From a phage: a stretch of 64,000 nucleotides of DNA. Each line of letters begins with the position of its first letter. Position 1 is the stretch's first letter. The position numbers were made by a program, and so were the translations under genes. Below are positions 13,365 through 28,722 of the stretch, piece by piece. The stretch is taken from sequence record PZ445450.1; one strand, 5' to 3'. The notes below the pieces were generated by a model that was not told where the DNA came from, ran no database searches, and saw only the letters and a program-made list of their open reading frames with translations.

Positions 13365-13693
13365 CAGAGATCATCGTTTCAACTGCAGGGTATGTATTCC
13401 TGACAATCATTGCGTTGGCTATTCTGGTGGCGGTGTATGGATTTGTTATCCTGCCTATTCTTGAGACATTTAGTTTGTGTCGGTGTTGGAGAAAAGCTTA
13501 CGGACCACAACCGTGGAAAGACTGGTTCCATTTGGTGCGTATAGCGTTCTCTTATGCCTATGACCACTCTAGCAGTGCATGCGTAACCGGGTACCATGCC
13601 TACAACTGGAACTGGGAAGGGCTGGGGAGATGGACTGTTACAAAAACTATACCCTTACGGTTGTATAAAGGAAAGAACAAACTGGGCACCTGA
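13361..13693 (+). CDS. Putative membrane protein
   Basis: N-terminal hydrophobic helix; ATGA coupling. Confidence 0.5.
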   Translation: MTEIIVSTAGYVFLTIIALAILVAVYGFVILPILETFSLCRCWRKAYGPQPWKDWFHLVRIAFSYAYDHSSSACVTGYHAYNWNWEGLGRWTVTKTIPLRLYKGKNKLGT

Positions 13694-14005
13694 TATTTTT
13701 AAGTTATCAGGTTGCTAGAGATCAGGAGGATTTCTAAAATGGATTTCCTCCTTTTGATATTTCACCGGACCAGATATTTTAAAATTCTTAGAAAATCAGA
13801 AAATGGATCGAAAACTAAAATGGATTTTTCAGAGTAGGCGCGACAAGCTGAATCGCTCATCCTATCGTTTGCACCATATTCTAGACCACCATTACAGATT
13901 TCCCGCACATGCTCACATCCTTCTACTAGAACTTCCTCCACTTACCCTTGACTTTTTATGGTAATAGTCTAACCACTATCTTGAGGTTGCGGTACAGCTT
14001 TCCGG

Positions 14006-14092
14006 GTACTCGATCTGTTTTTCGTTTCAAAGATTGAATTTTCTGAAAATTTTTCTCGATAAATTTCTCAGTACTCGATCTGTTTTTCGTTT
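14006..14092. repeat. Direct repeats of gtactcgatctgtttttcgttt (2 copies 65 bp apart) within an AT-rich, repeat-dense intergenic region
   Basis: Exact 22-nt copies at 14006 and 14071; flanking aaatggat(t)ttt and ttttctgRaaat motifs repeated. Confidence 0.6.
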
Positions 14093-14328
14093 TCTGAATC
14101 GGATTTTCTGGAAATCGTTCCGGAGCTCGACCTGAAATTTTTGGGGACGAAATCGATTTTTCGTTTTCAGAAATGGATTTTTAAAATTTCTATATGGGAA
14201 TATTTTATAGGATACTGTTTTATAGGAAATTGTTACGGAGGGTAATTAGCATGCTAATTAAATTTATTAAATGCGAGGAGTTCTCATTTAGAATTTTGAA
14301 TGATAATCATTCTCGTTTGCAGAATAAC

Positions 14329-14359
14329 GGGCAGGCCCGGTGATTGTCTCCCGGCCCCT
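14329..14359 (+). repeat. Conserved 17-nt element CCCGGTGRTTGTCTCCC, copy 1
   Basis: Same core at 14469-14505 and, inverted, at 23697-23743. Confidence 0.55.
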
Positions 14360-14468
14360 GTTGCCCCGGCTTGTTATTATAGTATCACACAGGACAAAGA
14401 AAGCAAGGACTTTTTGCATAAATTTTTAAATGATAATGATAACCGTTCTCATTTTATGCAGCGCCCAT

Positions 14469-14505
14469 CCCCGGTGGTTGTCTCCCCCGTCACCGGTGCC
14501 TGCCG
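14469..14505 (+). repeat. Conserved 17-nt element, copy 2
   Basis: cccggtggttgtctccc flanked by ccggtg/caccgg inverted repeat. Confidence 0.55.
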
Positions 14506-14675
14506 TCCTTTCGATAGGTATATTGTGCCACCTGGCGGGGCCGCTGTCAACACTTTTCAAAAAATTTTTCTAACCTGATGCGCTAACCGTTGCAACCTGG
14601 CGGGGCCAGCCTGGCAGGGGGGTGAAAGCTTGCAAACCTGGTAGTAGGGTAAACAATTGAAGAGGAGGTACAAAA

Positions 14676-14849
14676 ATGAAAGGTAATGCTACTCACCTGG
14701 AGAATGTAGCGATTAATGACGCTGAGGCTATCGCCCTGGTTGAAAAGGCTATGGCGGGAGCGTTGGAACATAAAGAAGAGTACGAAAAAATGGTGGTTAA
14801 CCTAGCGGGGGCGGCAGGTGGATTCTATCATAAAAATAATTTAAAATAG
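14676..14849 (+). CDS. Hypothetical small protein (57 aa)
   Basis: Strong GAGGAGG RBS; absent from the ORF track because under 60 aa. Confidence 0.5.
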   Translation: MKGNATHLENVAINDAEAIALVEKAMAGALEHKEEYEKMVVNLAGAAGGFYHKNNLK

Positions 14850-14852
14850 TCG

Positions 14853-14880
14853 TTGACAACAAGGTTAATCATGGTATTAT
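14853..14880 (+). promoter_or_regulatory. Sigma70-like promoter with extended -10
   Basis: TTGACA, 16 nt spacer, TG-n-TATTAT. Confidence 0.55.
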
Positions 14881-14930
14881 TACCCTACAAGGTGAACAAC
14901 ACCGCACTAACCAGTAAAGAGGATAAATTT

Positions 14931-15128
14931 ATGAACGCATACGGGATCAAAGTACGTTGCAACACTCGCCAGGTGGTCACCAATCAAGTGATTTGCCGGG
15001 TGGATGTAACCATCAACAACGGGCAAGGCCTTTATAAATTTCGTCGCGGTCATAGCTATACCCTGCAACAGCTTAATCGTTGCGCCCTGACAAAAGGTCA
15101 GATCAACCACTGGTTTAATAAAAAATAA
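14931..15128 (+). CDS. Hypothetical protein
   Basis: AGAGGA RBS before ATG 14931, downstream of the promoter. Confidence 0.5.
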   Translation: MNAYGIKVRCNTRQVVTNQVICRVDVTINNGQGLYKFRRGHSYTLQQLNRCALTKGQINHWFNKK

Positions 15129-15132
15129 ATAT

Positions 15133-15160
15133 TGACATGTAGTCTGAAACAAAATATACT
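15133..15160 (+). promoter_or_regulatory. Sigma70-like promoter
   Basis: A-tract, TTGACA, 16 nt spacer, TATACT. Confidence 0.55.
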
Positions 15161-15192
15161 GAAAGCACAAAAGACACTAAGAGGATAAAATC

Positions 15193-15591
15193 ATGAAAAC
15201 CACAACCTTTAATTTTGACAATGCTGACTTCTCTTTTTCTGATGTTAAAAGCTGCCGCCGTGATCGCGGATTCTACAAGGCCTATAATCTGGTTGGCCTG
15301 GACGATGATAATAATTTGCACGAAGTAGCGGAGATCCGGTACTATGCCGCCGCCAGCGGTAACACTCACTACTGTGTATTTTGGATTCACGACAACAAGA
15401 ACAATAAGTACGGTTATACTGGCGGCAAGGCGAGCGGTCACGGTTATGATAAAGCCAACGCTGCACTTGAAAGCGCATTAAGTGCCATGGGAATCACTGC
15501 CGACGGCTGGATCTATGAAGAAGAGTTTTTGGCGGCACTTGCTAACCACCTGGGCTATAAAAAGCACATTGTAACATGTGCCCACGAATAA
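15193..15591 (+). CDS. Hypothetical protein
   Basis: AAGAGGA RBS; 132 aa. Confidence 0.55.
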   Translation: MKTTTFNFDNADFSFSDVKSCRRDRGFYKAYNLVGLDDDNNLHEVAEIRYYAAASGNTHYCVFWIHDNKNNKYGYTGGKASGHGYDKANAALESALSAMGITADGWIYEEEFLAALANHLGYKKHIVTCAHE

Positions 15592-15599
15592 AAAAATTA

Positions 15600-15627
15600 T
15601 TGACACGCTGCAAAATTCAAGTAAACT
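15600..15627 (+). promoter_or_regulatory. Sigma70-like promoter
   Basis: A-tract, TTGACA, 16 nt spacer, TAAACT. Confidence 0.45.
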
Positions 15628-15675
15628 ATACACAAAAGGCGGGAATGTTTCCCGCCAACACAAAGGAAAAAGATC

Positions 15676-16071
15676 ATGAATAAGAACGTACGCCGCATCA
15701 TGAACGAACTGGCAAACGATGAAAAAATTATTGACATGCATTTAGTCAACATTTGCCGCCGTTGTGTAACATATAACAACCGCGCCGCAAAAGCGCGTGA
15801 GATGAACGCAAAAGGCACCTTAAAGCCTTTTCAGGTGGTTGTAAAATCTATAACTAATGCAGCAGGCCAGGCGCATGACCACAACAACGAGAGCACTAAT
15901 ATTGATCCGTCTTACGTAATGAAACGGATCCGGACTTGCAAGAATAAAGAGCAGGTGTATAACGTCATAGATTGGCTGGACTCCCTGGGCGATGTGGTTT
16001 ACAATAGGTTTTCTGCAGCCATCGAGATCCAGCTTGACAGATTGGACGGGAAAGTACTAAAAACTTATTGA
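15676..16071 (+). CDS. Hypothetical protein
   Basis: Leader hairpin gcgggaatgtttcccgc, then CAACACAAAGGAAAAAG and ATG. Confidence 0.55.
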   Translation: MNKNVRRIMNELANDEKIIDMHLVNICRRCVTYNNRAAKAREMNAKGTLKPFQVVVKSITNAAGQAHDHNNESTNIDPSYVMKRIRTCKNKEQVYNVIDWLDSLGDVVYNRFSAAIEIQLDRLDGKVLKTY

Positions 16072-16073
16072 GT

Positions 16074-16119
16074 TTATTTTTAGATGGCCTTGACTCCAGG
16101 GCCATCAATAAAGTAAACT
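16074..16119 (+). repeat. Intergenic palindromic repeat (GATGGCC-n10-GGCCATC), copy A
   Basis: ttatttttagatggccttgactccagggccatcaataaagtaaa; identical at 16695 and 20439. Confidence 0.7.
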
Positions 16120-16151
16120 AACCACAATTAAGCGGAAAAGGAGGCTTAAAG

Positions 16152-16271
16152 ATGAGCACTACACGCCAGCACACAAAGGTAACTATTATCGTTTGCATCA
16201 TTGGTTACATCCTGGCGCAAATGTTGATGGGTAGCGCCAACGGTGTAGCAAAATTTTTCTTAAACTTTTAA
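16152..16271 (+). CDS. Small hydrophobic peptide (39 aa)
   Basis: AAAAGGAGG RBS; one predicted TM segment. Confidence 0.4.
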   Translation: MSTTRQHTKVTIIVCIIGYILAQMLMGSANGVAKFFLNF

Positions 16272-16272
16272 T

Positions 16273-16300
16273 TGACAAGCTAACTTAGATCAGTATACTA
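16273..16300 (+). promoter_or_regulatory. Sigma70-like promoter
   Basis: TTGACA, 15-16 nt spacer, TATACT. Confidence 0.5.
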
Positions 16301-16350
16301 AGCACATAGACGGGAAAACTTCCCCAGACACACGAAAGGAGAAAAACACC

Positions 16351-16692
16351 ATGACTACTATGACCGCCGAAGAAAAAGCCCTGCAGATCGCCGCTCTGAA
16401 AAAACAGATCGCAGACCTTGAGAATAAGATCGATAACTTTGAAATCGACGAGGACAAGTACGACGAAAACTATGATGAATGGCTAGACGAGGTTTATGGC
16501 GAAATTATGATCGGAAACATTTCTTTTCTTCCGTCGCGTATCCTCAAGGAGTTAGATCCTATCGCTTACCGCTGCGGATTTAGCGACTACATCGACAGCC
16601 TGGATATTGAGGACGATGAAGAATACCGGGAATTACAGACAGAGTTGGAAGAAGCAAAAGAAGAGCTTGCGGAGCTGGAAGAAAACGAGTAA
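16351..16692 (+). CDS. Acidic coiled-coil protein
   Basis: AAAGGAGA RBS; Glu/Asp-rich C-terminus. Confidence 0.55.
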   Translation: MTTMTAEEKALQIAALKKQIADLENKIDNFEIDEDKYDENYDEWLDEVYGEIMIGNISFLPSRILKELDPIAYRCGFSDYIDSLDIEDDEEYRELQTELEEAKEELAELEENE

Positions 16693-16694
16693 GA

Positions 16695-16740
16695 TTATTT
16701 TTAGATGGCCTTGACTCCAGGGCCATCAATAAAGTAAACT
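16695..16740 (+). repeat. Intergenic palindromic repeat, copy B
   Basis: Identical 44-nt core. Confidence 0.7.
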
Positions 16741-16781
16741 TTATACTGTTAACACTGAACTAATGCATAGGAGTTAAAACC

Positions 16782-17027
16782 ATGGCAGCACTAATCACTA
16801 AATATTACGCCCCTACCAACACCAAAAGCGCCCGTATCATGGTAAAAGGCTTCGGACGTAAAAAGGTTTACACCTGGGATTATGCCTTAGACACGGAAGA
16901 CAACTACACCAACGCGATGACAGATTTTATTAATGAGCTGAACACGCGGATCTTGACAAATTATAAAATTACCGATATTGCCTATATAGGGGAAGGCGGG
17001 ATCTGTTTTGTCGGTATCGTCAAATAA
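16782..17027 (+). CDS. Hypothetical protein
   Basis: TAGGAG RBS. Confidence 0.5.
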   Translation: MAALITKYYAPTNTKSARIMVKGFGRKKVYTWDYALDTEDNYTNAMTDFINELNTRILTNYKITDIAYIGEGGICFVGIVK

Positions 17028-17103
17028 ACTGTTTTTTCGGTGGTCCTGGTAGCAGGGCCATCTATAAAGATAGTTTATCAATACAATGAAAGGAGAAAGT
17101 AAC

Positions 17104-17451
17104 ATGATCAGTGGGGCAAGTTTTATTATTGGCGCTATTGCTACGGCTTTAATTGTAAACAAGATCCAATCTAAAAACGAAAAAGAGAGCAACGCGCTCA
17201 CAGAATACCCATTTTGGATATTCAACGACAATGAAGACTACATTATCAAGTACAAGAATGAGAAGGGCGACCAGGTAACACCGCGACCGATCCCGGCCTA
17301 CAAGATGCAAGAAACACTATACCGCCTAAAGGCTGGAGGCGCAAAAATCGTAGACTTTTGGGGATATGATTGCAAGGATCAGGAGGTTATAAAACGGCGT
17401 ATCCGGGCTATTCAGGCCAATATTGAAGTTAGCAAGGGGGGGAATATATGA
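17104..17451 (+). CDS. Putative membrane protein
   Basis: AAAGGAGAAAG RBS; N-terminal TM helix. Confidence 0.5.
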   Translation: MISGASFIIGAIATALIVNKIQSKNEKESNALTEYPFWIFNDNEDYIIKYKNEKGDQVTPRPIPAYKMQETLYRLKAGGAKIVDFWGYDCKDQEVIKRRIRAIQANIEVSKGGNI

Positions 17452-17645
17452 AGATTAATTTTGAGAAGATTGTAAAGCGATCTCATGTTTCCGAAGAGCT
17501 GCCGGAACGACGCCAGCGTAACAATAAACTGAATAAGCCAAAAAGATTTGGAAAGATCTGGCGAAATCATTATGATCGTAAATTGCCTGGCCTACTTTTG
17601 GAACGTGAACGACAGGCAGAACGATACCGCCATAAAGACAAATAA
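17448..17645 (+). CDS. Small basic protein
   Basis: ATGA coupling; Arg/Lys-rich. Confidence 0.45.
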   Translation: MKINFEKIVKRSHVSEELPERRQRNNKLNKPKRFGKIWRNHYDRKLPGLLLERERQAERYRHKDK

Positions 17646-17652
17646 CAACCAA

Positions 17653-17683
17653 CGCCCCGCCATTGTGCGGGGCTTTTTATTTC
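17653..17683 (+). terminator. Rho-independent terminator
   Basis: gccccgc-cattgt-gcggggc followed by ttttt. Confidence 0.7.
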
Positions 17684-17826
17684 TATCCTACGAATAGCGC
17701 CCCTGGTTGGCCCTGTAAGCGCCAAAAAGGCCCCACCTATGCAATCGCCCCCCTTTAACCTGAAAACATCGCTTAGGGCCGTTTTATGGCGTTAAAAATA
17801 TCATTGACAGTGATTTTATTTAAAGC

Positions 17827-17854
17827 TTGACATCTTAAACAGGTTAGCTATACT
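17827..17854 (+). promoter_or_regulatory. Sigma70-like promoter
   Basis: TTGACA, 16 nt spacer, TATACT. Confidence 0.55.
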
Positions 17855-17886
17855 AACCACATCAAAGAGAGAAAGGAGTAAACGCC

Positions 17887-18147
17887 ATGCGTAAATTAAA
17901 AAATTTTGATAAAGTTGATGTTGTCCTGAATAATTTTTACTACTGCAACAACAAGGCCATTTGGTGGCGTGATAGTTCCACCGATAAAGTCAAGGCGCGC
18001 TTTCTCCAGGGGCACTGGCAAGGCCGCCCAGTGATTAAAATCATGGGGCAATTGGTAGCGTTTAAAAATTGCCGCCGTGTTGATGACGTTGAGGAGATTT
18101 TAAACATTTTGCGCCACAATAATTTAAAAAATAGTGTTGACAAGTAA
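17887..18147 (+). CDS. Hypothetical protein
   Basis: AAAGGAG RBS. Confidence 0.5.
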   Translation: MRKLKNFDKVDVVLNNFYYCNNKAIWWRDSSTDKVKARFLQGHWQGRPVIKIMGQLVAFKNCRRVDDVEEILNILRHNNLKNSVDK

Positions 18148-18164
18148 ATCTCAATAAGTATAAT
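18137..18164 (+). promoter_or_regulatory. Sigma70-like promoter
   Basis: TTGACA, 16 nt spacer, TATAAT. Confidence 0.55.
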
Positions 18165-18221
18165 TAAACACACAGGCGGGAAAACTTACCGCCACTAACA
18201 AAGAAAACAGGAGAAAATATC

Positions 18222-18845
18222 ATGACCACCGTTAACATTACCACAGGTTACAATTTATCTTTCGACGTGCTGACCGACGAACAAAAAGAAAAAGCCATTG
18301 AAATGGTACGCGAAAGAGAAGAACACAGCGGGGATGACTTTTTTGCAGAAAGTGTAATTGAACACTACAAAGAATATATCTTTCCAGAGTACGGCCTTGA
18401 AGATACCGAAGTACATTGGTCCGGCTTTTGGTGCCAGGGTGACGGCGCGTCAATCAGTGCTGAAAACGTGGATTTAGAAAAATTTTTGCGTAAAGTAAAG
18501 GCCCTGACCAAGTTCCGATCAATTCGTCACTTGTTCGGCACAATGCACGATGGCGAGTTATCAGCCAGTGTTGAACGCGACAAGTACAGCCATTACAGCC
18601 ATGAAAACACTGTAAGCGGATACATTGATACCACCTGGCTAGATCTGACCGCCAAACAAGAAAACAAAGTGGAAGACCTGGAAGAGCTGATCACCGAGAC
18701 GGTACGGGAGCTATCCCGCAAGGTTTACGTAGACCTGGAGGAGGCCTATCTAGAACAGTTCACTACCGAAAACCTGATCGGCCTTATTGAGGCCAATGAT
18801 TGGCGGTTTGATGTGGATGAATATGGAGAGATGAGTTTTTCATAA
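18222..18845 (+). CDS. Hypothetical acidic protein (207 aa)
   Basis: Leader hairpin plus CACTAACAAAG plus CAGGAGA RBS. Confidence 0.6.
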   Translation: MTTVNITTGYNLSFDVLTDEQKEKAIEMVREREEHSGDDFFAESVIEHYKEYIFPEYGLEDTEVHWSGFWCQGDGASISAENVDLEKFLRKVKALTKFRSIRHLFGTMHDGELSASVERDKYSHYSHENTVSGYIDTTWLDLTAKQENKVEDLEELITETVRELSRKVYVDLEEAYLEQFTTENLIGLIEANDWRFDVDEYGEMSFS

Positions 18846-18934
18846 ATAAAGTGTTGCAATAATCTAAAAACCTGCTATATTAAAACTCAAGGGGGCAAGA
18901 CGTTTGCCCCACACAAAACAAAGAGGAAAACATT

Positions 18935-19315
18935 ATGAAAAACACTACTAAAGCTATTGACACCGTTATGTTTAACCTGGTTACCTTTCGCGAGGATATG
19001 AAAGATCTTCCACGTGAAACAGTGTGCGATCACATTGAAAACTATCGCAAACTAATCAAAGAGTTGCCTTTAAAACGTGACCAGTATGCGGCTAACGCTA
19101 TGCTCAACGCCATGATCAAAAAGATGATTCAGTGTGATTTAACCCTGGCCTATGATTATGCAGGTGGTCGTTTTGCAGTATACAATCAGCCCGTGCCTGG
19201 TATGGGCACCACTGAAGAATTGCACGCGCTCAATCTAAAACAAGACGTGTGGGATAGTATGCCCCGCGTGGTGGTGTGGGCAGAAAGCGGAAAGATTTAC
19301 GGCGATAATTTTTAA
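18935..19315 (+). CDS. Hypothetical protein
   Basis: Leader hairpin plus AAAGAGGAAAA RBS. Confidence 0.55.
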   Translation: MKNTTKAIDTVMFNLVTFREDMKDLPRETVCDHIENYRKLIKELPLKRDQYAANAMLNAMIKKMIQCDLTLAYDYAGGRFAVYNQPVPGMGTTEELHALNLKQDVWDSMPRVVVWAESGKIYGDNF

Positions 19316-19325
19316 TCAGGTAACA

Positions 19326-19352
19326 GGCGGCATATTTGCCGCCTTATTGTTA
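19326..19352 (+). terminator. Rho-independent terminator
   Basis: ggcggcatatttgccgcc followed by ttattgtt. Confidence 0.5.
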
Positions 19353-19379
19353 AACAGAACTGCAAAAGAGGTACATAGA

Positions 19380-19751
19380 ATGGAATTTATTATTTTGGCC
19401 GTATTAGTTGCCTTGTTTAACGCCTGGATCGCTGGCAAGATGGGTAGATCCGCCTTTTTATGGTTTATTATATCTATTTTCCTGGGGGTGGTTGCAACTA
19501 TTGTACTTGTTATCCTTGCAATTGTTGACAAAGGCGATAATAGAAAGGGTAAAGTATTTTCCGACCTGTATGACGCGCAAACATTTGTCAACGCCTATTA
19601 TAGTGATCTTCCAGTCTCCCTACGCTGCAGCCTTGCACAACAGGTTTTCGATGAAGCTAAAACCAGAGATCACGCCCATGAGATTTGTTTAACTGAGGCG
19701 GATCGCCTATTTGAGAGGAATAGAAAATATGTGGGCCAGCCGTTTAAATAA
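19380..19751 (+). CDS. Putative membrane protein
   Basis: AAAGAGG RBS; two hydrophobic helices. Confidence 0.5.
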   Translation: MEFIILAVLVALFNAWIAGKMGRSAFLWFIISIFLGVVATIVLVILAIVDKGDNRKGKVFSDLYDAQTFVNAYYSDLPVSLRCSLAQQVFDEAKTRDHAHEICLTEADRLFERNRKYVGQPFK

Positions 19752-19974
19752 TACCACGTTAATTAATCCCTTTGATGAAGATTTGAAGCCAGCCGCCTGG
19801 CGTGATGGATTCAATAACGAACGCTTTATTTTCAGGCCTGATCTTAAGGAATTTTATAACAATGGATCGAACAACGACAGAGATAATTTTTCTTGTGATG
19901 TGCGTGGTGATGGTACTCCTGGGGGCCATTGTAAACCACGTCACTACTACCAGGATGAAAGGGGGAGACGATGA
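19729..19974 (+). CDS. Hypothetical protein
   Basis: GAGAGG RBS; stop overlaps next start (ATGA). Confidence 0.35.
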   Translation: MWASRLNNTTLINPFDEDLKPAAWRDGFNNERFIFRPDLKEFYNNGSNNDRDNFSCDVRGDGTPGGHCKPRHYYQDERGRR

Positions 19975-20090
19975 CAACCAAGGATAAGCCCCGCACCGAT
20001 AAGGTGCGCCGGGTTATGGTATGGCTTGAGATCATCGCCCTTGAAATATTGTTAGGCGTAGGGATGTATTTTATCGCTGTAAGTAACTGA
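19971..20090 (+). CDS. Small membrane peptide (39 aa)
   Basis: GGGGGAGA RBS; hydrophobic core; terminator follows. Confidence 0.4.
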   Translation: MTTKDKPRTDKVRRVMVWLEIIALEILLGVGMYFIAVSN

Positions 20091-20093
20091 TAA

Positions 20094-20126
20094 CGGCCCC
20101 CGATCCCTGGGGGCCTAACTTTTTCA
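20094..20126 (+). terminator. Rho-independent terminator
   Basis: ggcccccgatccctgggggcc followed by taactttttc. Confidence 0.65.
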
Positions 20127-20234
20127 AAAAATTTTTCTTCCGGGGTGTTGCAATCCGGTCCGAAATATGGATAATAATAATAATCAACGGGGAGCTAATC
20201 CCCACCAACACAAAAACCAGAAAGGAGAAACAAA

Positions 20235-20435
20235 ATGAGCAACAATATCCGCGTTATTAACTTCAAAAAAGAAGAAAAAATTGCCGTGCTGATTGACGGT
20301 CAAGAAATCTTCAAGGGCGACTATGAAGATCATCAAACGGCGATTAGTATCACTCGCGTGATTGGTTACCATAATTTTTACCCCCAAGGCGCTGAGGCAG
20401 CTGTTAAACGAATCAAAGAGATTGTAGGCCTGTAA
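20235..20435 (+). CDS. Hypothetical protein
   Basis: Leader hairpin ggggagctaatcccc plus ACCAACACAAA plus AAAGGAGAAA RBS. Confidence 0.55.
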   Translation: MSNNIRVINFKKEEKIAVLIDGQEIFKGDYEDHQTAISITRVIGYHNFYPQGAEAAVKRIKEIVGL

Positions 20436-20438
20436 AAT

Positions 20439-20484
20439 TTATTTTTAGATGGCCTTGACTCCAGGGCCATCAATAAAGTAAATT
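20439..20484 (+). repeat. Intergenic palindromic repeat, copy C
   Basis: Identical 44-nt core. Confidence 0.7.
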
Positions 20485-20528
20485 TAAACCCTGTTAAAAT
20501 ACCACGCAGTTAACAAGGAGTGATAGAC

Positions 20529-20828
20529 ATGTTTATCCAGGCTAATAATCTTTATTTCTTTGATGGTCAGATCGTAGACGGCGTGGAAGTAGAGATCACC
20601 GGGTGCCCTGGCGGTCAGGTTATGACTTTTCGGAATAATGCCTTTGATGATTCTCATATCGTTATGAGAATGGAAGTTAGTAAGCTGGACGATAAGAAAA
20701 CACTCATTGATTATTCCGTGAAAGATCATCCAGACTACCACATGATCTATGGCGATTTGTGCATTGTTGACCGTGACAAGGTGAACGGCATTGTGATCGC
20801 TATTGTGAACGATGTTTTCTCAAACTAG
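20529..20828 (+). CDS. Hypothetical protein
   Basis: AAGGAG RBS before ATG 20529. Confidence 0.5.
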   Translation: MFIQANNLYFFDGQIVDGVEVEITGCPGGQVMTFRNNAFDDSHIVMRMEVSKLDDKKTLIDYSVKDHPDYHMIYGDLCIVDRDKVNGIVIAIVNDVFSN

Positions 20829-20845
20829 TTTCAGCAGGTTATTTT

Positions 20846-21196
20846 ATGAAAGTAAAACTATATTACCTTAATGAGCTTAACCCCCTTGCCCAGGTCCGCG
20901 CCCTGGCTAATACCTTGATTTGTGAGAAATCTGTATATTGTGTTGAGATTAACGCCATGCGTGAACGTCTCAAAGGTGGTTACTTTGACATCCATGCTGC
21001 AATCAACGGCCTGAATATGGAATTTATCCGCTTACGTAACAGCCGCCAGAGTCTGGCAAGAATGGAACAAGATCCGGCCCACCTTCGTAAGCTGGTTATT
21101 GAAAACCATCTGATGTTCAATGCCGATGGCGATTATTACCATTTTCACCGTAAACGCTGGTACCGTAGCGGCAATATAGGAAATAATGCAAAATAA
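20846..21196 (+). CDS. Hypothetical protein
   Basis: 116 aa ORF, weak RBS. Confidence 0.4.
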   Translation: MKVKLYYLNELNPLAQVRALANTLICEKSVYCVEINAMRERLKGGYFDIHAAINGLNMEFIRLRNSRQSLARMEQDPAHLRKLVIENHLMFNADGDYYHFHRKRWYRSGNIGNNAK

Positions 21197-21397
21197 GGCC
21201 CCCGGCAGGGCCTACAGCGATATAATCATCTAAAGGCTATGCAACCGCATGGCCTTTATTATTTTGGCGTTACAGCGGCCCCAAGGCGCTTAAAAATTTT
21301 TTTAAAGAAGTGCTTGCATCAAGTCCTACAATATGGATAATAGGACGTGTCAGGGGGCGGCCCCCAATCATTAACCGGATAGATAGGAGTTAAAACT

Positions 21398-21682
21398 ATG
21401 GCTATTGTTACCGTTGGCGATGTAGTAGAAATGGAAGCCAAATACTTAAAAGCGGGTATGCATATCCTACGCAACGATCTTGAGCTAGTCCTGACAATGG
21501 TCGACTATAATCCCGGCCAGGATTATCCAAGCATCGACTACTTTTTTGAGTATGTTGATGAAGAGCTAAAAGAAGACGAAGCCTATTGCGGTGAATTTTG
21601 CAACTTCTTTTGCCCTGATGAGGTTGTAAAAGTTATCTATCAACCTGGCGTACCTTTCCCGTTGCACGCCATCAATAAATAA
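21398..21682 (+). CDS. Hypothetical protein
   Basis: Leader hairpin gggggcggccccc; TAGGAG RBS. Confidence 0.5.
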   Translation: MAIVTVGDVVEMEAKYLKAGMHILRNDLELVLTMVDYNPGQDYPSIDYFFEYVDEELKEDEAYCGEFCNFFCPDEVVKVIYQPGVPFPLHAINK

Positions 21683-21744
21683 GCCTAGCGGGGCCGAAAA
21701 GGCCCCTCCTGAAATTATGAAAAAATAAAGAGGGGTAAATCATC

Positions 21745-21981
21745 ATGATTGAACAAATTAAAAGCACTAAACCGAACGTTAACGGCAATGTTTCTCACTT
21801 TATTGGTGATAATGAAAGAGGGACACCGTACGCTGCGGTAACAGTTCAACCGAACGGGGATTATTGGTTTACTGTATACGGATCTTATTCTTTTGGGCGT
21901 CCGGTGCATGATAGAATTTTAAAAGTAGCTAATCCGACCGGGAAGAATATCACAGCAGAAAAATTTTTTGAAAATAGTTGA
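21745..21981 (+). CDS. Hypothetical protein
   Basis: AAAGAGGGG RBS. Confidence 0.5.
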   Translation: MIEQIKSTKPNVNGNVSHFIGDNERGTPYAAVTVQPNGDYWFTVYGSYSFGRPVHDRILKVANPTGKNITAEKFFENS

Positions 21982-22005
21982 CATGACCGTATAAGACTGT
22001 AGTAT
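21978..22005 (+). promoter_or_regulatory. Sigma70-like promoter
   Basis: TTGACA, 16 nt spacer, TAGTAT. Confidence 0.5.
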
Positions 22006-22053
22006 ATAAATCAAAGGGGGCAAGCCCCACCAACCACAAAGAGGATAAAAATC

Positions 22054-22233
22054 ATGGCTATTATTGCAAAGACCGAGATTGTAGGGTTAGATTCTATTCT
22101 CCTGGCATATGAGGAAGCTATAGAAATGTATGTGGTTTCCTACGGTGAGTATATCCGTGAATATAAATCTGTTGATCTAGCTTTTGAATGTTATATTCGC
22201 CAGGTCAATAAAGCATATGATGATTATCGTTAA
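22054..22233 (+). CDS. Hypothetical small protein (59 aa)
   Basis: Leader hairpin gggggcaagcccc plus ACCAACCACAAAGAGGA; absent from the ORF track. Confidence 0.5.
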   Translation: MAIIAKTEIVGLDSILLAYEEAIEMYVVSYGEYIREYKSVDLAFECYIRQVNKAYDDYR

Positions 22234-22318
22234 AATAGTTTGACAACAATTATAAATCGGGTAGAATGTATTTCGTAGGGCGGCAATGATGCCGCTCACA
22301 ACTAGAAGAGGGGTCATC

Positions 22319-22513
22319 ATGGCGCTTAAAAAACTAACAAGCAATACTCGTTGGGATGAAATCGACGGGGAAGTTTACATTTTCGCCCGTAAACCAGGGG
22401 ATCAAAAATGGTCAAAGGCTTTTACTTGCCACCCTGCAACAATAGACCTGATAAAAAGGGAAGGTCTACGTGAAGCAGTATCAAGAAGCCTACTGATCCC
22501 TTGTAAAAAATAG
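22319..22513 (+). CDS. Hypothetical protein
   Basis: AGAGGGG RBS before ATG 22319. Confidence 0.4.
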   Translation: MALKKLTSNTRWDEIDGEVYIFARKPGDQKWSKAFTCHPATIDLIKREGLREAVSRSLLIPCKK

Positions 22514-22709
22514 TTGGACAATACGCGGTTACCTGGTAAAGTGTACGACATAGGGCGGGGCAATAAGGCAACGCCCATTAATGAGGGTGGAATCATGTTA
22601 GAGAAAATTTTCACGGTTGTAGTAGTGGGCCTGGCGTTATCGGTTGGAGTAGTTGCAACTATGGCTAACATGATCCTATCTTCCCACGGTATTGGATAAG
22701 GTGAATCAA

Positions 22710-22925
22710 ATGATCACGAATAAAACAGGTAAAACAGAATTTTTACGCGGCTTGCAGATCGGCAAGCCTGAGATCTGGTATTGCACTAAAACACCACGTG
22801 ACGAAATGAAAGACTTCACCGCCACGCTACAACGGGTAAAGATATCCATCACACAGAAAAAGGCCTTGATAGTGGTGGAAGGTGAGATCCCCCAAGCCGT
22901 TGTTATAGTTGAGCGTACAGCATAG
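22710..22925 (+). CDS. Hypothetical protein
   Basis: ORF with weak RBS. Confidence 0.35.
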   Translation: MITNKTGKTEFLRGLQIGKPEIWYCTKTPRDEMKDFTATLQRVKISITQKKALIVVEGEIPQAVVIVERTA

Positions 22926-23014
22926 TTTAATCTATACCGTACACCCCATTAACTAACAAAGCATAAACAGGCGGCGGTGACCGCCTTAAACGCAACAGAA
23001 AGAGGATAGACACA

Positions 23015-23299
23015 ATGAAAAAGATGATCGCAGTGGTTGCCCTGGTTGTTGGACTTAATGCGCCTGCAATGGCTAAAGAGCTGGCAAAAGAGGTAGATCT
23101 AACTGATATCCATGCCGTCAATCAAATCGGGGTTACTTATCGCTTATGCCTTGCCGCTAAAACTTTTAAGGACGGCACTACAGAGTACTACGGATTCGAG
23201 GGCGTCCGGTGCGGTGAACTTGCTCGCGACCTTAAAGAAGATCCAGACCTGGAGGATCTGCCGATAACCGTAAACGGGAAAACTTACGTGAACCGTTAA
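23015..23299 (+). CDS. Putative secreted/periplasmic protein
   Basis: N-terminal signal-peptide-like MKKMIAVVALVVGLNAPAMA; AAAGAGGA RBS. Confidence 0.55.
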   Translation: MKKMIAVVALVVGLNAPAMAKELAKEVDLTDIHAVNQIGVTYRLCLAAKTFKDGTTEYYGFEGVRCGELARDLKEDPDLEDLPITVNGKTYVNR

Positions 23300-23301
23300 C
23301 C

Positions 23302-23436
23302 ATGAGAAAGATAATTATTACCATAGGGATCGTGGCGGCAATGTTGGCGATCTTTCCCCTTATGGTTAGGTATGTGCTGATCAGTGTTGTCCTGGTAGTC
23401 AGCGATCTAATGTTATATATTAACTCATTGTTTTAG
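23302..23436 (+). CDS. Small membrane peptide (44 aa)
   Basis: Hydrophobic; directly follows the upstream stop. Confidence 0.35.
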   Translation: MRKIIITIGIVAAMLAIFPLMVRYVLISVVLVVSDLMLYINSLF

Positions 23437-23444
23437 GTGGAATA

Positions 23445-23636
23445 ATGACAGCAGAAGAAGTTAAAAAAGTACTGGCAGTACTACGTTACCATAATCATTG
23501 CAAGGTGAAGAATGATCCTGATTATCTCGATTCATCCCTTGAAGAGGATACACTGCAAGCCATAAGCAACATGCAAGAATTGCTTAAGCGTATGACAGAG
23601 AAAAACCGACCGGACTATATAGGCGAAAAAATATAA
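23445..23636 (+). CDS. Hypothetical protein
   Basis: AGGTGG RBS. Confidence 0.45.
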   Translation: MTAEEVKKVLAVLRYHNHCKVKNDPDYLDSSLEEDTLQAISNMQELLKRMTEKNRPDYIGEKI

Positions 23637-23652
23637 TCTTTATAAACCATAA

Positions 23653-23682
23653 AACAGGGCTTGTAATGGTCCTGTTTTTTGT
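23653..23682 (+). terminator. Rho-independent terminator
   Basis: acagggc-ttgtaatg-gtcctgt followed by tttttt. Confidence 0.6.
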
Positions 23683-23696
23683 TATACTTATTTCAC

Positions 23697-23743
23697 GGCA
23701 GGCACCTGGCGACGGGGGGAGACAATCACCGGGGGTGCCTGTC
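23697..23743 (-). repeat. Conserved 17-nt element, copy 3 (inverted), within a perfect 8-bp inverted repeat
   Basis: caggcacc...ggagacaatcaccggg...ggtgcctg. Confidence 0.55.
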
Positions 23744-23765
23744 ATATAAAAAACTATAAAAACCG

Positions 23766-23794
23766 TTGACACCTGCCAGGCGGTGGGGTAACAT
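23766..23794 (+). promoter_or_regulatory. Sigma70-like promoter
   Basis: TTGACA, 17 nt spacer, TAACAT. Confidence 0.45.
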
Positions 23795-25286: not shown

Positions 25287-25305
25287 TTTCTTAACTGAAT
25301 TATCA

Positions 25306-25332
25306 AGGGGCTTAAAGGCCCCTTTCTTTTTG
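25306..25332 (+). terminator. Rho-independent terminator closing the + strand arm
   Basis: ggggcttaaaggcccc followed by tttcttttt. Confidence 0.7.
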
Positions 25333-26237
25333 TCTGCTCTTCTCCTACCATAAACGGCCCTACCTGGCAAGTGGAATAATTGACTAGCCATCAATCCCAC
25401 ATACTGTACAAATATACATGGAAAATAACTATTGCATAATCTTTCATTGTGCGGTAGCAGGGCCATTTTTACCCGTTTTCTCTCCCAAAAGTGCACGTAA
25501 TGCCGCTATTGCACAAATTTTAACCTGATGCACATATCCAATATCTTGTCAACAACTAAAAATCTTTATAAGTCATACACTTATACAGCATCGAAAGCGT
25601 GTTCTACGTGAAAAATCGAGTATAACTATAGCCGCCAGATCTCAGAATTCACGTACGCACGCCATTCTATAGCCTGCAAAGTATTTATTCCAACCACAGA
25701 ATAACGGAATAGTCAATACCTGCATAAAATAATTATTCGTGTAAACTGCATAACATAAATCAGCTCAGGTGTCAACATTTTTCGTAAACAGTCCGAAATT
25801 ATCACGATGAGTTATCATAAACAGAGAAATCTTTAGTCGTCTAATGTTTACTGTACATTACTATACTGACTGGAATCATTAGATGACTAAGAAAAAGATA
25901 AGAAATAATTAATAATGTAATTGTTTTATCTGTAACAATAAGGCAACCATGCAAACGAATGTCATGGCGCGACGGAGTCGCGACATAATATAAAAGCAGT
26001 AACCATCACCCCCGTGATAGTTTGTCTGCAATCTATTATTCAGATCATAGTTGCCTTGTATTTAGTTAATCATGACATAACAAGCAAGGCAACTATAGCT
26101 CTGATAATAGTTGCCCTGCTTTTATATTATGTCATAGATTGTTAGCTTGTTAACTGTCAGCCTGTTGGCTGTTAGCTTGTCAATTATTAAATTGCTAATC
26201 TTTATCATGCAAACGAATGTCATGGCTTATCATCTCT

Positions 26238-26294
26238 GTGTAAACAGTTTGGGCGTAAACTATTCAGGCGTAAACAGTCTATGCGTAAACAGTG
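26238..26294. repeat. Tandem approx 15-bp repeats with core GCGTAAACAG (4 copies)
   Basis: tgtgtaaacag / gcgtaaactat / gcgtaaacagt / gcgtaaacagt in tandem; GTAAACAG occurs at least 7 times between 25.7 and 27.4 kb. Confidence 0.6.
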
Positions 26295-27837
26295 AGATAT
26301 GGAATAGTAACAGCCGTTATTGTGTCATATTGTGTGACATTGTGTCCGGTGTCTGGTGTCCAGTGTGTCAGACAAGTTTTTCTCCTCTTTGTCAAGTGCT
26401 GCATGAAAAATTTACAAACTGGTATGGTAGCATTTTTGCGGCCCTGTTTACATTCAGTTGTGTATGTATAACCCTTGTTGTGTGGGCGTTTAGACGTCTA
26501 GACGGTTGGAAGTCTGCAGGTCAATATCTAATCTATCGGCTGCTAACTATATCCCACACAAATAGTAAGAAATATAATTGTTATGTGCGTAAACAGTAAC
26601 TCATGTTATCAATCCCTGTATGTATCGCCAGTGGTGCGCATAATGGGTATTATGTTAAATTGCCCGTAATGATAATGGTTCTCACAATGATAGGTATTCT
26701 CATTCATCCACACAAAATAGGTTGCAAATGTTGTGCCACTGTGTGAACGGCCTGGCCTATTAATTTCCCTCACTGCCTCGATATTTGAGAATTGTTATAA
26801 GAATGAGAAGTATTCCCATTTCGTCCGCCTGGCAGCACTCCTGTAGTCCTACAAGGACTCTAGCTGAAAGCTAGACCCTTCGGGCCTCCCTGCAGGTCAG
26901 GTCAAAATCGTGGTAGAATTGGGCTTATTCAGATATTTCTGGCCGACTCTTCAGGTCTGTGTGGGAAAAGCCAACCTCTCCGGCGGGGCAGGGGGAGGTC
27001 AATTAAAAAATTTACGTGGTGTATGAAGCGCTCTTCAGGTAAGGCAGGTATTATGGGATGAAACCCTCTTCAGGCAATGATATTTGTGGGTGTGATATTT
27101 GCTGGAAAGCCAGATATGACGGGACTCCCGGCGGGGATGGGGCAGTACAGACAGGGAAAATATGGGGATGTAGTTGGGTAAATTGATCAGACAGGTAGAG
27201 TATGGAATATGTTACAAGTATGTTAAATATGGAGGGTGAATATCTGTAGGATTTGTGTGTAAAATCAAAGACTTAAGCGGTGTTGTGGTATTTTCTATAA
27301 ATAATTCAAGTTTAATAGGTAATATTTGTCTCTATCCACTCTGTGTGGTAAACAGATTCAGATGATATTGGTTTGCAAGTGTATACATAATATACAAATT
27401 AAAGATACAAGAAACCCCCCTCCCCCTTCGGCTACCATTCACCTTTTCCTCTGACTGGTACTTAAACACTTATTCAGACTCTTCAGGTTATCACCCATAT
27501 ATCATATGGCAGTGACTGGTGTCCTCCGGCCCCTCTTTCGTCACCCGTCCGCTTCGCCATGCTAATGCCATAGCCAAATGTTCGGTTGTTCACCCTGTTC
27601 ACTCAGGTGTATCTCCATACCCCTTCAAACCGAAGAGAACAGAAAACCCGAATTACTCGGTAAAAGAAAAGAGAAGAACTTAATTTTATCATGATAGGCA
27701 AGAATGTCAAGGCATGACTGCTCACTAAACAAGCAAACAGTCATGTGTGGAAGGTAAGTGATTGTGGTGGTAGGAAATTTAGTTGAAAGATGTGTTATAG
27801 GTGCTCCCAGCACTTTAGCCGGGTAGCTAATTGTGTG

Positions 27838-28053
27838 TCAGTCCAGTGGTTCATCACCTACTTCACTGAAATCAATGTTCATGGTCTCCTCCCAACCATC
27901 AATCTCAGCACCAGAGTAGAGATCTTTAGGACTTACTCCCAAAGCCTCAGCAACAGAGTCTATATTTAACACCTCTGGCAGGTATGATTCATCGAATTCA
28001 AGGTAAATCAGGCCACGAGTGTTGTCAGCTCCACCAAATATTTCTATCTTCAT
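27838..28053 (-). CDS. Hypothetical acidic protein
   Basis: GAGGAG RBS before the internal ATG (MKIEIFGG...); start refined from the ORF track. Confidence 0.45.
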   Translation of the reverse strand: MKIEIFGGADNTRGLIYLEFDESYLPEVLNIDSVAEALGVSPKDLYSGAEIDGWEETMNIDFSEVGDEPLD

Positions 28054-28173
28054 GAAATCTCCTCTGGAAATGAGAATGTGAACAGGGTTTATATGTTCCA
28101 ATGCACTGGAATTATGCACGTTTGCCTCTTCAGGCCATGCTTTAGCATGAGGAACCTGTGTGGGCTCGGTGCT

Positions 28174-28386
28174 TCATAGTCTACCACCTCTGAACTCTTC
28201 GTGCTCAGGCATAATAGAGAACCAGATATCTACGATGTCTTCCCACGTTAGGTCATCAGCCTCAGGATCTACCTGGAGCGAAGATGGAGAATCTTCAGAA
28301 TTGAAGTTTTCCTCTTGCACTGGCTCAGTCAAGGGACATATAGTCACTCCTTTGGATGTCTCTTCAGACGCATGTGTGGTAGTCAT
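28174..28386 (-). CDS. Hypothetical acidic protein
   Basis: ATGA-coupled to the upstream small peptide. Confidence 0.4.
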   Translation of the reverse strand: MTTTHASEETSKGVTICPLTEPVQEENFNSEDSPSSLQVDPEADDLTWEDIVDIWFSIMPEHEEFRGGRL

Positions 28387-28484
28387 GTTCCACCCGTGAG
28401 TATTCCGGCAACAGCCGCTATGGAAGTAATGATCATCAGGATCACCACTAAAACTTCAGACAATGTTCTCATTGTGTATTCCAT
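28383..28484 (-). CDS. Small TM peptide (33 aa)
   Basis: GGAG RBS; hydrophobic; promoter immediately upstream. Confidence 0.35.
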   Translation of the reverse strand: MEYTMRTLSEVLVVILMIITSIAAVAGILTGGT

Positions 28485-28504
28485 ATTCTCCAAACTGTGT
28501 GTGG

Positions 28505-28533
28505 ATACTATCACGGGAGCGGTAATGTGTCAA
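28505..28533 (-). promoter_or_regulatory. Sigma70-like promoter
   Basis: TTGACA, 17 nt spacer, TAGTAT on the - strand. Confidence 0.45.
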
Positions 28534-28691
28534 CAGCAACGCCGCGAGGGTTTGGTTAAAATCCGAGCGTATGGTGATTTGGGTCAAAACGGACGTGCGT
28601 TCTCGCTACGCTCGAAAGAGAGGTTTGTTTATAGACCGTCCTTAAACGCTCTGTAACGAGATTATCTGTCCAAGGTATGCAATCGTGCACC

Positions 28692-28722
28692 AGATAAAGA
28701 AAAGGACGCCATAGAGCGTCCT
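28692..28722 (-). terminator. Rho-independent terminator
   Basis: ggacgctctatggcgtcc followed by ttttctttat on the - strand. Confidence 0.6.

Follow-up and report, generated by a model that had tools for sequence, protein, structure and literature searches.

What might a 17-nucleotide sequence do when it recurs, letter for letter, between the small early genes of a coliphage? The DNA analysed here is a stretch of 64,000 nucleotides (hereafter 'the window') from sequence record PZ445450.1, which derives from an rV5-like coliphage (Vequintavirus), and the 17-mer CCCGGTGRTTGTCTCCC occurs in it exactly three times. Two copies reside in a non-coding gap of approximately 700 base pairs (positions 13964-14676), and the genes surrounding the copies are carried on the plus strand, are small and lack annotation. 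By megablast, positions 13800-15000 are 98% identical over their full length to Escherichia phage vB_EcoM_Gotham (Vequintavirus), and about 120 further rV5-like records match the same segment. We conclude that the repeat is a real, strongly selected regulatory element. Our preferred reading, whose chances we judge from the sequences to be about evenly balanced, is that it is a promoter-proximal element recognised in single-stranded form, and that it would serve as an RNA-level signal, either the seed of a small RNA or a tag in a leader.

Three copies in the window

All three copies match without mismatch, and a pattern search of the window returned no extra match when three mismatches were permitted. 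Shuffled sequences are expected to contain 0.13 +/- 0.34 occurrences, and none of 100 shuffles reached three, which bears out the claim of a preliminary description of this DNA that the copies exceed chance; the coordinates given there were also right, if generous by a few bases. A sequence profile (R1), made from 26 homologous copies, likewise finds only these three in the window (E = 2.5e-14, 7.9e-14 and 5e-09; next match at E ~1), and a profile search of the other ~92 kb of the near-identical Gotham genome yielded no further copy. Copies 1 and 2 are 134 nucleotides apart within two diverged tandem units, between which good conservation is confined to a palindromic box and the motif. The positions of the copies and their associated features are collected in Table 1.

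Table 1. The repeat copies and associated features of the window; promoters and RNA features are predictions.
Feature	Position	Strand	Description
Copy 1, A form	14336-14352	+ for CCCGGTGRTTGTCTCCC	Exact match; reads GGGAGACAATCACCGGG on the minus strand
Copy 2, G form	14470-14486	+ for CCCGGTGRTTGTCTCCC	Exact match; reads GGGAGACAACCACCGGG on the minus strand
Copy 3, A form	23717-23733	- for CCCGGTGRTTGTCTCCC	Exact match; reads GGGAGACAATCACCGGG on the plus (gene) strand
R1 match, copy 1	14321-14369	minus	49.1 bits
R1 match, copy 2	14460-14503	minus	32.2 bits
R1 match, copy 3	23697-23748	plus	47.5 bits
Unit 1 promoter	14406-14376	minus	-35 TTGCTT (14406-14401), N16, TG-extended -10 TACTAT (14384-14379) overlapping a perfect TATAAT (14381-14376)
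Unit 2 promoter	14550-14522	minus	TTGACA-N17-CACAAT with TG; score 11.5
Copy 3 promoter	23661-23688	plus	-35 TTGTAA (23661-23666), N16, TG-extended -10 TATACT (23683-23688)
Intrinsic terminator with embedded copy 3 promoter	23651-23678	plus	-35 in the hairpin loop, TG-extended -10 right behind the T-run
Hairpin at predicted 5' end, copy 3	23697-23743	plus	GGCAGGCACC ... GGTGCCTGTC, core 3 in the apical part
Fur-box-like 9-1-9 palindrome 1	14299-14317		AATGATAATCATTCTCGTT; downstream of core 1 (minus reading); 1 mismatch to AATGAKAATNATTMTCATT
Fur-box-like palindromes 2a and 2b	14429-14453		GATAATGATAACCGTTCTC (14432-14450) matches 16/19 of the classical Fur consensus
Next strong early promoter (context, outside the element)	23766-23794	plus	TTGACA-N17-TAACAT

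The element follows predicted promoters on its reverse strand

The preliminary description read the element on the strand of CCCGGTGRTTGTCTCCC and placed its copies just upstream of promoters. When the 70 nucleotides upstream of each distinct copy were scored for sigma-70-type promoters, with a cut-off score of at least 9.5, the association was instead found with the reverse complement. On the reverse strand (the GGAGACAAWCACCG reading) 22 of the 30 copies reach the cut-off (mean score 9.8), against 1 of 30 on the motif strand (mean 7.1) and 6% of random 70-mers from the same loci (mean 6.8). The reverse complement is thus most likely the informative orientation of the 17-mer and, by the same comparison with controls, the copies have by prediction what is expected of small RNA genes, a promoter of their own upstream.

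The distance from the end of the -10 box to the core ranges from 22 to 36 nucleotides and is constant inside each homologous group: 22-23 in metagenomic phages, 24-29 at the first locus, 29-30 in copies of the copy-3 type (six phages from four groups) and 36 in unit 2. With a promoter on the reverse strand for each copy, the element would be transcribed, as GGGAGACAAUCACCGGG, at about +15 to +45. Within the window all three copies lie 27-36 nucleotides downstream of a sigma-70-like -10 box on the reverse strand, and the earlier placement upstream of a promoter holds for copy 3 alone, which also precedes the promoter at 23766-23794.

The unit 1 promoter, whose -10 box ends 27 nucleotides ahead of the core, is the weakest of the three (score 8), and its layout recurs in loci L010 and L014. 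That of unit 2, which ends 36 nucleotides ahead of its core, was also picked by an independent promoter scan and, by sequence likeness, seems to be a homolog of a phage W70 promoter, TTGACA-acggccccgccagggggc-CATAAT. The sequence cctggcgggg, previously regarded as the spacer of a promoter with the element upstream of it, is indeed a promoter spacer, but it belongs to this minus-strand promoter, which would transcribe copy 2. At copy 3 the -10 box ends 29 nucleotides ahead of the core, and the arrangement of terminator, TGtTATWCT and core, with a spacing of 29-30 nucleotides, is repeated in phAPEC8, Seunavirus and Certrevirus; the promoter-in-terminator design also appears in metagenomic phages. 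From their sequences we infer that the predicted promoters fire.

Promoters inside intrinsic terminators (window positions 23651-23688; loci L023, L024, L026 and L263) are conserved across genera.

The core is shared by distant and unrelated phages

A sensitive blastn search with the first locus matched 250 phage records, and alignments with Certrevirus, Mydovirus, Serratia, Salmonella, W70 and phAPEC8-like phages are confined to approximately 14263-14354, ending where the motif does. At the copy 3 locus the part alignable with phAPEC8-like, Seunavirus, Certrevirus and Salmonella phages is 23651-23732, which extends from the terminator through the motif. The core as read from related loci is CGGTGWTTGTCTCC, its reverse complement is GAGACAA-N-CAC(C), and this part is invariant within the consensus of the element, (G)GGGAGACAAWCACCGG. 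An alignment of 26 distinct copies, drawn from Vequintavirus, Certrevirus, Seunavirus, Mydovirus, Phapecoctavirus and an unrelated metagenomic phage family that has six or more copies per 20 kb, shows AGA-AA-CAC to be invariant within GGAGACAAWCACCG (reverse-complement reading) and the flanks to be variable. The check proposed earlier, a search for the motif in related phages, therefore recovered it there and in unrelated phages as well.

Among the latter, the metagenomic phage IMG/VR 3300027123_000194 (GC 39%) carries six copies in 20 kb and matches neither cultured phages by blastn nor any PHROG. A protein factor shared between the phage groups was considered and rejected, since in the sampled regions the window and this contig have in common only generic Dam-like and endonuclease VII matches, and PHROGs gave nothing. 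A host origin was likewise dismissed, as the region has no match in E. coli. A specific extended pattern locates the element in 22 metagenomic stretches, including several contigs with 3-10 copies, one of them 215 kb long; looser 15-mer scans of IMG/VR were discounted, because chance matches and one prophage coding sequence dominate them.

An unclassified metagenomic phage family, to which the 215-kb contig belongs, comprises L268 (IMG/VR 3300027123_000194), L271, L274-L276, L279, L281 and L291. With few exceptions, an early gene cassette of this family has behind it a terminator, TATAAT, 22-23 nucleotides and the core, in that order. Two copies in L275 (1249+ and 1319-) point toward each other from either side of a palindromic terminator.

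So wide a distribution might suggest that the element travels as a passenger with a small promoter cassette, mobile or recombinogenic and similar to the promoter-stem-loop (PeSL) modules of T4-type phages, and is kept by duplication and exchange, not for a function of its own. Units 1 and 2 are a tandem duplication, many metagenomic copies reside at gene-cassette boundaries, and the element occurs in unrelated phages, all of which would be expected of such a cassette. However, flanks, promoter hexamers and terminators diverge freely, whereas 11-12 positions of the core are the same in all 26 copies from distant lineages. An invariant core amid diverging flanks indicates purifying selection on the core itself, and we regard the passenger explanation as very improbable. 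The element resembles T4-type PeSL modules in being a repeated, promoter-associated module at small early gene boundaries of a large lytic phage, but its conserved part is an invariant non-promoter core common to unrelated phages.

The suspicion that the open reading frames (ORFs) drawn over the element are artefacts proved well founded, since the motif in its T form has no TGA codon and homologs differ by insertions and deletions; coding by an ORF over the motif was rejected on the same grounds. One such frame, a 30-codon ORF at 14252-14343, has a strong Shine-Dalgarno sequence (GGAGGG-N8-ATG), crosses the first of the Fur-like boxes and terminates with the TGA inside motif copy 1, an end that is not kept in relatives with the T-form motif. 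Annotators should be cautious with the 'hypothetical proteins' annotated over 14300-14578, which are probably not genes.

Flanking stems vary around a constant sequence

A perfect 8-bp inverted repeat flanks copy 3, as had been described: CAGGCACC (23699-23706) is complementary to GGTGCCTG (23734-23741), and the stem grows to 10 pairs with one G.T. On the plus strand, from the predicted start, this hairpin has a folding energy of -24.6 kcal/mol (z = -3.25 against shuffles); the minus strand gives z = -3.9, and one G.U pair forms solely in the plus-strand reading. In the rV5-like units a reverse-strand hairpin or closing stem begins 6-8 nucleotides past the -10 box, which is the predicted start site, and holds the core near its tip. 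The hairpin of the unit in phage CR8 has z = -3.3, and the closing stem is 85% paired across 12 homologs. In the reverse-strand reading G.U pairs exceed A.C pairs (13 versus 7 overall, p = 0.26; 13 versus 3 in the six best pairs), an excess that favours this strand only mildly. A smaller hairpin of 3-6 bp abuts the 5' side of the core in 17 of 23 types and is missing in six, with a weak arm-swap control; its arms include CCTG/CAGG, CCTG/CGGG, CTTG/CAGG, CACTA/TAGTG and CACCG/CGGTG.

Across genera the core is invariant, whereas flanks and predicted stems differ, which upholds the earlier view that the conserved unit is the sequence rather than its stems. The covariation analysis suggested at that time points the same way: consensus folding and covariation are weak, which supports the emphasis on sequence and speaks against a conserved RNA structure. 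A conserved RNA fold was accordingly rejected as the identity of the element, being weak or absent in folding, covariation and consensus tests, and RNAalifold returned no consensus structure for the metagenomic leaders. An intrinsic terminator was also rejected, in either orientation, as there is no U-tract behind the window copies. We conclude that the selected feature is a sequence presented unpaired.

Single-stranded signal or double-stranded operator

Under our preferred reading, host RNA polymerase would transcribe each core at about +15 to +45 of a short RNA, because every copy has a sigma-70-type promoter of its own. Transcripts of units 1 and 2 would run leftward through the Fur-box-like palindromes, in antisense to the early genes. 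Unit 3 would fire rightward, from the promoter inside the preceding terminator and toward the next early promoter and gene. Since the flanking stems are not conserved, the core would be recognised in single-stranded form, either as nascent RNA or as the non-template DNA strand, and its reader may be a complementary RNA or some host machine that many bacteria share. RNA is the presumed active form. Strict co-orientation with a promoter, a variable and unphased distance from it, the lack of dyad symmetry, the lack of a conserved fold and the presence of the core in unrelated phages that share no dedicated protein together argue for recognition of a transcribed single strand.

The core could then act in small phage RNAs that stand alone, as their seed, or in a leader, as a tag that alters the fate of the transcript or the polymerase. 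For a small RNA with a conserved 5' seed, the architecture of a small RNA gene is seen in at least 8 of ~40 metagenomic copies, which reach an intrinsic terminator within ~100 nucleotides, and units 1 and 2 lead no gene. For a cis-acting leader tag that promotes antitermination or stability, copy 3 and most metagenomic copies point in the gene direction and lie between a terminator and the following promoter.

Several observations weigh against recognition as a transcribed single strand. The promoters are consensus matches only, and that of unit 1 is weak. Units 1 and 2 lead no gene, and no clear terminator was found after the window copies. No target RNA was identified, a site of 15-17 nucleotides being below the reach of BLAST and pattern scans being swamped by chance matches, and no binding factor was identified either. 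The structural evidence is weak: significant covariation was not found in the closing stem (12 homologs, shuffle controls), the copy-3 group gives a weak consensus fold in alifold (-7.2 kcal/mol) that contains no compensatory pair, metagenomic leaders fold no better than shuffles (single-sequence z ~0), and the G.U excess is not significant overall and comes from related sequences. Finally, the same conservation would be expected of a site that acts at the DNA level.

Such a site would be a double-stranded operator of 12-17 bp, located just past small promoters, at which a phage or host protein binds and blocks or modulates transcription. Conservation that lies in sequence and not in structure agrees with this proposal, a position at +15 to +45 is where roadblock repressors act, and nearby DNA is rich in sites resembling those of host factors (Fur-like boxes and, in relatives, GTAAA-N5-GTAAA). 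However, the site lacks dyad symmetry, and its strict orientation relative to the promoter (30/30) is unnecessary for a roadblock. Distances of 22, 26, 29 and 36 nucleotides are not helically phased, no candidate DNA-binding protein common to the unrelated phages appears in the sampled regions, and the region has no E. coli homolog. We consider an operator unlikely. The preliminary description had proposed a protein-binding or processing site, which is possible given the sequences, but strict promoter co-orientation and the absence of dyad symmetry favour a transcribed single-stranded form over it.

Comparison with known regulatory elements

Searches for known families did not name the element. 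ARAGORN finds no tRNA or tmRNA gene in the window. Nothing in the window reaches an Rfam gathering score, no Rfam match with E <= 1 was obtained in eight related loci, and the only three matches in 13500-15000 are far below gathering scores (E 0.046-1.2) and do not cover the motif. A ToxI-like repeat is known in the related phage PhiTE (PMC3475682). ToxI and pseudo-ToxI were nevertheless rejected, because the 36-nucleotide repeat is unmatched, with nine or fewer substitutions, in the window and in every locus. Mimicry of a ribosome-binding site was rejected too, since the element ranks at the 18th percentile of 83 real phage start regions, 7-10% of random 16-mers equal its score and some copies lack GGAG. 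The element shows no convincing likeness to Chi, boxA, ops, sigma-54, sigma-E and common E. coli transcription-factor motifs in their usual forms. The element appears to be undescribed: no description was found in the CB7 paper, the PhiTE paper or full-text literature searches, which is no proof of absence.

Lambda nut and HK022 put act as nascent RNA. Like these sites, the phage element is short and oriented, and it is found a few tens of nucleotides past early phage promoters, at two loci with opposite genomic orientation. It differs in that it lacks boxA and a two-stem put fold, several of its copies lead nowhere, and no N-like protein was found; the 3-6 bp hairpin before the core, seen in 17 of 23 types, would be an uncertain counterpart of boxB, a conserved 5-bp stem with a GNRA-like pentaloop. 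The absence of boxA CGCUCUUA(A) from all 26 aligned copies speaks against a lambda-type nut site, and an HK022 put RNA was rejected because there is no conserved fold and two stem-loops of ~70 nucleotides behind the promoter were not found. The RfaH ops (JUMPstart) element offers a second parallel, with ~12 nucleotides conserved as sequence, orientation-specific, placed in 5' leaders at variable promoter distances and common to unrelated operons and mobile elements. However, ops uses the non-template DNA strand of a paused complex and the phage core is unrelated to it; GGCGGTAGCGTG is absent and the core is GGAGACAAWCACCG, for which reason this identity was also rejected.

These parallels raise the prospect of a cis-acting tag for processive antitermination (put, nut or ops type), through which a polymerase that has crossed the core ignores the terminators between early cassettes. 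The element is promoter-proximal, oriented and short, as such signals are, and copy 3 and most metagenomic copies point in the gene direction, where every cassette ends in a terminator. CACC-G presumably also fits the elemental pause pattern G(-10) Y(-1) G(+1), a likeness counted in favour of this idea. Yet boxA, ops and a two-stem put-like fold are lacking, and units 1 and 2 and at least eight metagenomic copies aim at convergent terminators or non-coding DNA, in which it is hard to see what read-through would be for. Moreover, no known antiterminator family is present among the 25 Pfam families listed, out of 42 with matches in 114 window ORFs. We hold antitermination to be distinctly unlikely.

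Enterobacterial small RNAs with a conserved 5' seed (RybB/OmrA type) and phage-encoded small RNAs, which fit the preferred single-stranded reading, likewise have their own sigma-70 promoter, a conserved single-stranded segment near the 5' end and a variable remainder; a subset of metagenomic copies has an intrinsic terminator ~90-110 nucleotides on. The differences are that the window copies have no clear terminator and that a target was not found.

Fur-like palindromes beside the element

Read along the reverse strand, each unit of the first locus has a 9-1-9 palindrome of AATGAGAATCATTCTCATT type behind it. The window contains seven palindromes that fit AATGAKAATNATTMTCATT, versus 0.23 expected, and three of these lie at 26668-26820 (26668-26704 and 26802-26820). 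Relatives have 2-4 Fur-like boxes in tandem, and boxes adjoin the element in other genera too. Fur boxes match GATAATGATAATCATTATC at approximately 13 or more of 19 positions and often form arrays, and the adjacent palindromes do likewise. As 9-1-9 or 7-1-7 palindromes (TGAGAAT-C-ATTCTCA) in tandem arrays, they agree with 13/15 positions of the TGATAAT-N-ATTATCA core and 15-16/19 of the classical consensus, but both phage half-sites carry a symmetric T-to-G change. On sequence grounds a phage repressor is an equally good candidate for the protein that would bind them. The palindromes suggest that host iron sensing, or a phage repressor, may operate in a lytic phage with iron enzymes; the window encodes iron-dependent NrdAB, NrdDG and radical-SAM enzymes, which make the iron link plausible.

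The sequence TTGAAT-N18-CAGAAT surrounds the last box and faces the reverse-strand promoter, which leads to an explanation that reads the motif strand. A Fur-repressed promoter, with the palindrome in its spacer, would start transcripts ~10 nucleotides before the motif and converge with the reverse-strand promoter, and this convergent pair, with its complementary 5' ends, would form a switch that senses iron where the early genes are entered and works by antisense or interference. In many genera the motif comes directly after the box, TTGAAT and CAGAAT, and both the quality of the boxes and the iron enzymes accord with the idea. This promoter is doubtful, however, because several phages have no A at the critical position 2 of its '-10' (CGGAAT, CTGAAT and GGGAAT), and a run of GAAT-type hexamers fits equally well; TTGAAT-N18-CAGAAT may be part of a Fur-type hexamer array. 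In addition, motif-strand promoter scores are low, neither a promoter of this kind nor a box accompanies copy 3 or any metagenomic copy, and the switch could cover only the locus of copies 1 and 2 (locus A), as an added layer. We rate it as decidedly improbable.

Other features of the window and related loci

Immediately left of units 1 and 2, positions 13999-14194 hold three AT-rich direct repeats of ~65 bp (the later two 77% and 61% identical to the first) that contain TTTTCGTTTTC and look like iterons. Farther along, a region of ~3.4 kb with almost no ORFs (25300-28700) coincides with a strand switch and with the maximum of cumulative GC skew. Three of the Fur-like boxes lie in it, as do a perfect inverted repeat of 18 bp (25982-25999 / 26116-26133) and four GTAAAC repeats spaced 15 bp apart (26240-26290), and it is a candidate replication origin or control region.

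Related loci carry additional signals. TTTAC-N5-TTTAC (GTAAA-N5-GTAAA on the other strand), which we take to match the CpxR box, occurs in Cronobacter phage CR8 (L018, 1617-1631) and in L015, L016, L017, L019, L021 and L024; its place is immediately before the -35 of the reverse-strand promoter or, in L024, upstream of a strong early promoter. No such site was found in the window. A conserved GC-rich block of ~100 nucleotides (ctaccggcgatccacc...gttagccccgcc...ggggtggcg) adjoins the element in other genera (L018 ~1640-1745; L015-L022, L034 and L067), has its own minus-strand promoter, TTGACR-N17-CATAAT, and gives no Rfam match. Its helices are apparently kept by compensatory changes (ACCAGG/CCTGGT in Mydo; CCCCGC/GTGGGG versus CCAGCCA/TGGTTGG), and it may be a second undescribed RNA. 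The window lacks the block, and there the homologous promoter is followed by unit 2. In phAPEC8, Seunavirus and Certrevirus, transcripts from early promoters (L016 2231-2250 and 2475-2513; L023, L024 and L026) begin with a conserved (AC)GTAGGGCG, the motif annotated as 'PHIRE promoter' in phAPEC8, which is distinct from the 17-mer element.

ORFs of the window also encode a protein resembling S30AE-family ribosome hibernation factors, an Rnl1-type RNA ligase, a cyclic-phosphate receiver domain, Sir2, PhoH, a ClpP-like protease, NrdAB, NrdDG and ThyX.

Implications

An extension of the single-stranded reading, which we offer tentatively and regard as doubtful, is that a conserved host machine (RNA polymerase or the ribosome) reads the core directly as a portable signal, or that the core is the common seed of a widespread family of phage small RNAs directed against one conserved host RNA. 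If true, this would explain why the same 12 bases occupy the same post-promoter place in unrelated phages. It would also establish a new class of phage regulatory RNA, with members in well-studied coliphage groups (rV5, phAPEC8 and PVP-SE1-like) and in freshwater-type metagenomic phages that have ten or more copies per genome.

The early regulation of rV5-like and phAPEC8-like phages, which are common candidates for therapy and biocontrol, is essentially unknown. The element provides a handle on the control of their early transcription units and on a possible class of phage leaders or small RNAs beyond Rfam. Through the adjacent Fur-like operators, it may also offer a way to learn whether lytic phages read the iron status of their hosts.

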